A stretch of 64,000 nt of DNA from a virus (taxonomy: Duplodnaviria; Heunggongvirae; Uroviricota; Caudoviricetes): IMG/VR virus record IMGVR_UViG_2718218131_000002; one strand, given 5' to 3'. Under the pieces are notes generated by a model. It searched no databases. It was not told the origin of the DNA and worked only from the letters and a program-made list of their open reading frames with translations. Of the stretch, positions 43,605 through 44,680 are shown one piece after another (positions within the stretch are counted from its first letter, which is position 1; each line of letters opens with the position of its first letter). Made by a program: the position numbers and the translations under genes.

Positions 43605-44680
43605 ACTGCTGAATTTACAATCCAAGTGCAACAAAAAAAGAAGTACTCATCAACTAGAATATAATTTTGTTTCCACACAAAAACCATTTCCAAATGATGA
43701 GTACTTCCTACCGACATCTTACAATAAACGAGCGAGAAAAGATAATGATTTTACTCGCACAGGGCAAAAAACAAGCAGAAATTGCCAAAGCACTGGGACG
43801 TAGCTCCAGCACCATTTCTCGCGAGCTGAAACGACACGCTCTAGAAAGCTACAGTGCAACGAACGCACAAAACAGCTATTTGAAGCATCGTCAAAATAGC
43901 AAAGCACAGCGCAAATTAGAGCAGCCTGAATATTTCAATTTGGTGCAAGAAAAGTTTCTGACAGAAAACTGGTCGCCCGAACAAATCAGCGCACGATTAA
44001 AATTGGAAAAATCTGAATTATCCATTAGTTATTCAACCATTTATCGTGGTATTTATTCAGGGTTGTTTGATATAGGCGAACGCAAAGCCAGTCGCAAACT
44101 GCGCCACAAAGGCAAAACACGGCATACAAAAAATCATCATGAAAAACGTGGCAAAATTCAGATATCCAACCATTTGAACGACCGTCCCATTTCGGCGCAA
44201 AATCGCAGTCGCTTTGGACATTGGGAAGCCGATACCGTACTGGGTAAAGCGGGTGGAGCTTGTTTGCTGACGCTGACGGAACGCAAAAGTCGTTTTGAGT
44301 TGGTGAAGAAAATTCCTGCCAAAAAAGCCGAAGCAGTCCAAAAAGCCATGATTGAATTGCTGGATTCACATATATTGCGGTCAATTACGCCAGACCGTGG
44401 TAAAGAATTTGCCCAACATCGTTTGGTAACAGAAGCACTGGGTGTAGAATTTTACTTCCCCGAGCCGCATCAACCGTGGACACGGGGAACGAATGAAAAT
44501 ACAAATGGGTTACTTCGTGAATACTTTCCGAAGCACCAAGACATCAATCAGTGGAGCGAAGTTGATATTCAACAGGTGATCAATAAACTGAATTTACGAC
44601 CACGTAAATGTTTAGGTTGGAAAACACCTTATGAAGTTTACTTCAAAAAATCGTTGCACTTGGTTTGACAATTCAAGCTA
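43605..44680 (+). mobile_element. IS30-family insertion sequence, ISApl1-like (~1.07 kb); ends approximate to within ~10 bp
   Basis: Imperfect ~22-bp terminal IRs (GAATTTACAATCCAAGTGCAAC vs GTTGCACTTGGTTTGACAATTC); low-GC codon usage unlike the surrounding phage. Confidence 0.6.
43694..44668 (+). CDS. IS30-family DDE transposase
   Basis: N-terminal HTH (LTINEREKIMILLAQGKKQAEIAKALGRSSSTISRE) and DDE core. Confidence 0.8.
   Translation: MMSTSYRHLTINEREKIMILLAQGKKQAEIAKALGRSSSTISRELKRHALESYSATNAQNSYLKHRQNSKAQRKLEQPEYFNLVQEKFLTENWSPEQISARLKLEKSELSISYSTIYRGIYSGLFDIGERKASRKLRHKGKTRHTKNHHEKRGKIQISNHLNDRPISAQNRSRFGHWEADTVLGKAGGACLLTLTERKSRFELVKKIPAKKAEAVQKAMIELLDSHILRSITPDRGKEFAQHRLVTEALGVEFYFPEPHQPWTRGTNENTNGLLREYFPKHQDINQWSEVDIQQVINKLNLRPRKCLGWKTPYEVYFKKSLHLV

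Follow-up and report, generated by a model that had tools for sequence, protein, structure and literature searches.

An insertion sequence (IS) of the IS30 family lies next to a tail-fibre gene in a lambdoid prophage within the 64,000-nucleotide stretch of viral DNA analyzed here (the window). The locus raises two questions: whether the element is ISApl1 itself, and whether it arrived alone or together with a resistance gene. [quoted passage not shown] By the ISfinder convention, two elements count as the same IS at roughly 95% or more DNA identity.

The boundaries of the element were set by base-by-base alignment with an empty site. We searched 5426 complete E. coli genomes by megablast with positions 42900–45400 of the window. 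Many E. coli prophages matched both flanks without the middle, and the best empty-site match was found in PK8241 (NZ_CP080139.1), a chicken isolate. Because the left flank matches PK8241 up to 43607 and the right flank matches again from 44678, the inserted DNA spans 43608–44677 (+ strand) and is exactly 1070 bp long. These ends fall within 3 bp of the interval 43605–44680, at which an earlier note made from the sequence had placed a single, low-GC element of ~1.07 kb. Its description of the base composition and copy number held as well. The GC content is 41.6% in the IS versus 61.7% in the adjoining 1 kb on the left (tail-fibre gene), and a BLAST search of the element against the 64-kb window returned itself as the sole match.

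Each end of the element carries the features of a terminal inverted repeat. A search for inverted repeats returned terminal arms with a 23-nt core at 43610–43632 and 44653–44675. The outermost 27 bp at both ends form the full repeats, the left one (IRL, 43608–43634, + strand) reading GCTGAATTTACAATCCAAGTGCAACAA and the right one (IRR, 44651–44677, + strand) reading CTTGAATTGTCAAACCAAGTGCAACGA as its reverse complement, with mismatches at 6 of the 27 positions. Directly outside the repeats, a CT dinucleotide occurs at each flank (43606–43607 and 44678–44679), and the uninterrupted PK8241 site (...ATGAATATACTAAAAAAACTT..., also given as ...GACATGAATATACTAAAAAAACTTATG...) contains a single CT. 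The flanking dinucleotides are the two copies of a 2-bp target-site duplication. The reconstructed 22-bp target, CATGAATATACTAAAAAAACTT, has a GC content of 18%, and the duplicated dinucleotide includes a C. The central tetramer of the target is ACTA, which contains a C yet is less GC-rich than the preference reported in PMC9927407.

The gene to the left of the insertion is an intact prophage tail-fibre gene (42282–43595, + strand; the start may be 42276 or 42282) whose stop codon is 12 bp from the left end of the IS. Its collagen repeats, which the earlier note had named, were recovered by Pfam as a Collagen match alongside phage_tail_N and Phage_fiber_C domains. An identical protein of 437 aa is encoded in GCA_014571555.1, where a gene of 89 aa follows directly and leaves no room for an IS; the second of the two places shown for this protein is a 2.4-kb contig, too short for the insertion there. 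In PK8241, the 89-aa gene (MNILKKLMQRL...) begins one base past the tail-fibre stop and belongs to Pfam PF06820 (Phage_fiber_C), the 'prophage tail fibre C-terminus' family. The IS sits after nucleotide 11 of this gene, in codon 4. Thus, the placement of the element just after the tail-fibre gene stands, with the refinement that the start of the following small gene is interrupted and not intergenic DNA. PF06820 matches both the C-terminus of the tail fibre (residues 365–428) and the small downstream gene, so the latter looks like a separate copy of the fibre C-terminal domain.

Comparison with PK8241 defines what remains of the 89-aa gene on either side. The 5' stump consists of 11 nt (43597–43607, + strand) preceded by an AGGAG ribosome-binding site. 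This AGGAG and the ATG of the stump now lead into a 68-aa out-of-frame peptide within the IS, giving a fusion that begins MNILLNLQSKC... and runs to a stop. The 3' part (44680–44938, + strand) still matches PF06820 Phage_fiber_C with an E value of 7.8e-35. The longest leftover open reading frame in it, at 44690–44938, encodes 82 aa; its first codon is the former Met8, and no ribosome-binding site is evident ahead of it. Because the ribosome-binding site and the first seven codons are lost to this remnant, the 89-aa tail-fibre-C-terminus-like gene is probably inactivated by the IS, as read from the sequence. The same 82-aa frame is called in many unrelated contexts, often a few bases from a contig end, and no ISApl1 was present in the loci that we fetched. 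The tail-fibre gene and the effector genes espO and espK are untouched by the insertion. We also considered that the IS drives the remnant frame or the effector genes, and dropped this candidate: espO and espK are on the opposite strand and convergent, and the remnant frame is without a ribosome-binding site.

The prophage around the insertion ends on the right against potB and potA of the E. coli chromosome. To the left of the IS, 13.8 kb of the prophage late region is 99.6% identical to PK8241, and to the right, 4,729 bp running into potB and potA is 100% identical. The closest relatives come mostly from chickens and pigs. An effector region (45052–46749, − strand) occupies the end of the prophage by potB. 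It holds espK (45388–46749, − strand), a 453-aa open reading frame that matches the EspK model with 1058.6 bits, and an open reading frame of 91 aa at the position annotated espO in PK8241; the same genes are annotated in that genome. The presence of espK and espO suggests a LEE-type (EPEC/EHEC-like) background.

Two other insertion sequences were observed in this prophage. An IS21-family element of 2639 bp (27163–29801), with an istA frame at 27284–28930 and an istB frame at 28704–29702, is bounded by 7-bp direct repeats CAGAGCT at 27156–27162 and 29802–29808; copies that match it carry the annotation 'IS21-like element ISSso4 family'. This ISSso4-like element interrupts the gene annotated in PK8241 as DNA-packaging protein FI. 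The prophage therefore looks already defective and probably cannot produce infectious particles. An IS3-family element lies at 18454–19769, between the lysis and terminase regions, with a transposase frame at 18834–19724 (NF033516, 307 bits). A copy of the IS3 family, annotated as frameshifted, lies at the equivalent position in PK8241, which indicates that the IS3 insertion is older and shared. Additionally, the early/regulatory half of the prophage (positions 1–15700 of the window) is a mosaic relative to PK8241, with patches of 87–93% identity between unrelated DNA. One stretch of the unrelated DNA includes a 617-aa open reading frame (12853–14706) that has no NCBIfam match and is absent from PK8241 at that position.

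Taken with the identification given below, it is almost certain that a lone ISApl1, using its usual route of transposition, entered this potB-adjacent lambdoid prophage at an AT-rich position 11 nt inside the small gene that comes behind the tail-fibre gene. We regard an assembly artefact, in which an IS copy from elsewhere was misplaced in a repetitive tail-fibre region, as very unlikely. Lambdoid tail-fibre regions are indeed repeated (median of 11 places per genome) and often break assemblies, and several contigs begin 4–15 bp upstream of the same 82-aa frame. The junction was also seen in no other genome or metagenome contig searched: a 2.5-kb query across both junctions found the insertion in 0 of the 5426 complete E. 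coli genomes, and an exact 30-nt search did not find the left junction in metagenome contigs. However, a misjoin would not yield exact IS ends, a clean 2-bp direct repeat in an AT-rich site and a restored empty site, and the right flank continues at 100% identity to PK8241 into potB and potA, which are unique. True insertion of a lone ISApl1 into the prophage is thus the reading that we carry forward.

To compare the locus with structures that carry mcr-1, we used plasmid NZ_CP031550.1 (ISApl1-mcr-1.1-pap2) as the canonical mcr-1 reference. In this plasmid, mcr-1.1 and pap2, a PAP2-family gene, follow the IS directly, and the IS is base-for-base identical to the copy in the window. This identity to an mcr-1-linked copy is what could make the element one arm of Tn6330 or of another composite transposon with two copies, or what is left of one, with a resistance gene attached at this locus now or formerly. 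The IS arm is indeed the same as in Tn6330 (ISApl1-mcr-1-pap2-ISApl1), where two ISApl1 copies in direct orientation flank mcr-1-pap2, and in the single-ended derivative ISApl1-mcr-1-pap2, but the window differs from both in having no mcr-1, no pap2 and no second ISApl1, and its insertion is one IS long. A tblastn search with MCR-1.1 against the 64-kb window gave only noise (best E = 0.27) and no mcr-like gene, in agreement with the earlier note, which had seen no phosphoethanolamine transferase gene adjacent to the element. Moreover, both junctions rejoin perfectly into the PK8241 prophage with the 2-bp duplication. Because they restore the uninterrupted sequence, nothing was inserted other than the 1070-bp IS. 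With a precise empty site and a lone copy, the composite-transposon arm is refuted for the window locus, the scope of this conclusion being the locus only, and we give it practically no probability. Given one copy, no MCR homologue and exactly 1070 bp of inserted DNA, the element is a solitary ISApl1, neither Tn6330 nor ISApl1-mcr-1-pap2.

The identity of the IS was assigned from its nucleotide sequence. All 1070 of 1070 bp match ISApl1 copies on many chromosomes and plasmids among the complete E. coli genomes. In the plasmid collection, 100% identical copies also occur on Salmonella, Klebsiella, E. fergusonii and E. albertii plasmids. Eight Actinobacillus plasmids in that collection match the element too, and a copy on a [Pasteurella] aerogenes plasmid, at 99.9% identity, is the nearest from the Pasteurellaceae among the matches listed. 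Published work gives ISApl1 terminal inverted repeats of 27 bp with six mismatches (PMC5404521), a 2-bp target-site duplication upon insertion and a preference for AT-rich targets (PMC5404521, PMC9927407). The element in the window has the same sequence, length, inverted repeats and duplication size, every tested feature agreeing, and differs in location only. The name ISApl1 rests on the RefSeq annotation of matching copies, the mcr-1-adjacent copy and these published features, with the A. pleuropneumoniae type copy outside the comparison.

The transposase supports the same assignment. The gene is intact (43694–44668, + strand), and its 324-aa translation is identical to WP_012478345.1, annotated 'IS30-like element ISApl1 family transposase'. 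The family named by the earlier note is borne out by a score of 309 bits against NCBIfam NF033563 (transpos_IS30; cut-off 80). At the N-terminus, a helix-turn-helix matches Pfam HTH_38 with 59.4 bits (cut-off 27), and the DDE (rve-type) catalytic core scores 29.1 bits against Pfam rve, slightly under the cut-off of 32.6. By its sequence, the copy is complete and probably competent for transposition.

A different IS30-family element that merely resembles ISApl1, such as IS30 or another Pasteurellaceae or Enterobacterales relative, would be permitted only by the generic family matches (NCBIfam IS30, Pfam HTH_38 and rve); it is extremely improbable and effectively refuted, because nothing can exceed the 100% identity over 1070 of 1070 bp to annotated ISApl1 copies including the one upstream of mcr-1.1, and because length, inverted-repeat structure and duplication size equal the values published in PMC5404521. 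The earlier note had named a better match to another IS30 member as the result that would tell against it, and at full identity there can be none. Thus, what that note had called ISApl1-like is, at the level of sequence, ISApl1 itself. The element is already known; it is a thoroughly characterized IS, and the event is of a well-documented, ordinary kind.

Published observations of ISApl1, which shows high activity in E. coli, indicate how such an insertion would arise. Serial isolates from one patient gained 1–4 extra ISApl1 copies within weeks, on the chromosome and on plasmids; each extra copy had a 2-bp duplication, and mcr-1 was not moved along (PMC5404521). Transposition proceeds via a circular or dimer intermediate in which the abutted ends are separated by 2 bp (PMC6349718, PMC9927407). 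By analogy with this published work, the donor of the copy in the window would most likely have been an mcr-1 plasmid or a site elsewhere in the same cell. The IS would have left the donor as a circular or dimer intermediate with its ends abutted 2 bp apart, as described in the ISApl1/IS30 literature, and would then have integrated into an AT-rich target whose centre is somewhat richer in GC, generating the 2-bp duplication. Its local effect would be the probable inactivation of the 89-aa gene.

We then asked how ISApl1 is distributed. Among the 5426 complete E. coli genomes, 234 carry ISApl1, for the most part as chromosomal copies: it occurs at 626 places on chromosomes and 293 on plasmids. 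The number of places per genome has a median of 2 and reaches 41 at most. Additionally, 449 plasmids in the plasmid collection carry it. ISApl1 was absent from the phage-genome collection, so deposited phage genomes lend no support to carriage of the IS by phages. The insertion in the window is probably recent, since its sequence is perfectly identical to plasmid-borne copies, the empty site is perfect in close relatives and the junction is absent elsewhere among the sequences searched.

Only one place covered at least 80% of the 2.5-kb query, and there ISApl1 occupies a different site. In E. coli EPSSH018 (NZ_CP125889.1), the IS lies between J and lom of a lambdoid prophage, at 3001–4070 of the fetched locus. 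Similar to the insertion in the window, this copy falls within a lambdoid distal tail module, in AT-rich DNA, with a 2-bp duplication. In contrast, the sequences of the two copies differ at 1 nt, and the duplication in EPSSH018 is GC. The site (J/lom), the prophage and the chromosomal location by uspF differ as well, and DUF1076-domain genes lie downstream. Because site, prophage and chromosomal location all differ, the insertion in EPSSH018 is an independent event.

These two independent insertions, in the window and in EPSSH018, are the basis for a speculative idea, namely that ISApl1 lands recurrently at the AT-rich junctions between genes of the distal tail module (J, lom, tail fibre) in effector-carrying lambdoid prophages. 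We consider this improbable. If it were true, such prophages could serve as reservoirs in the chromosome from which a lineage retains ISApl1 once the mcr-1 plasmid is lost, and a second nearby insertion could make a composite transposon with the type III effector genes espO and espK. Another possibility would be transfer of the IS to new hosts by an inducible prophage.

For the strain itself, the meaning of the element follows from what a single copy can do. The literature indicates that mcr-1 moves only inside a composite transposon with two ISApl1 copies and that a lone ISApl1 moves on its own (PMC5404521). The suggestion that the element is a possible mobiliser therefore holds for its own transposition and fails for its neighbours, for which a second flanking copy is needed (PMC5404521). 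On this evidence, the lone copy can give rise to further copies and points to exposure to mcr-1, and it is not a mobiliser of adjacent genes. New insertions could arise from it, and new composite transposons too if a second copy were added. Lone chromosomal copies of ISApl1 are common in E. coli carrying mcr-1, and this copy is chiefly useful as a sign that mcr-1 may be, or may once have been, present in the strain. In practice its use is epidemiological: an identical, intact copy of ISApl1 in the chromosome of a strain with an espK/espO prophage, and with nearest relatives mostly from chickens and pigs, is reason to check the same genome and its plasmids for mcr-1.
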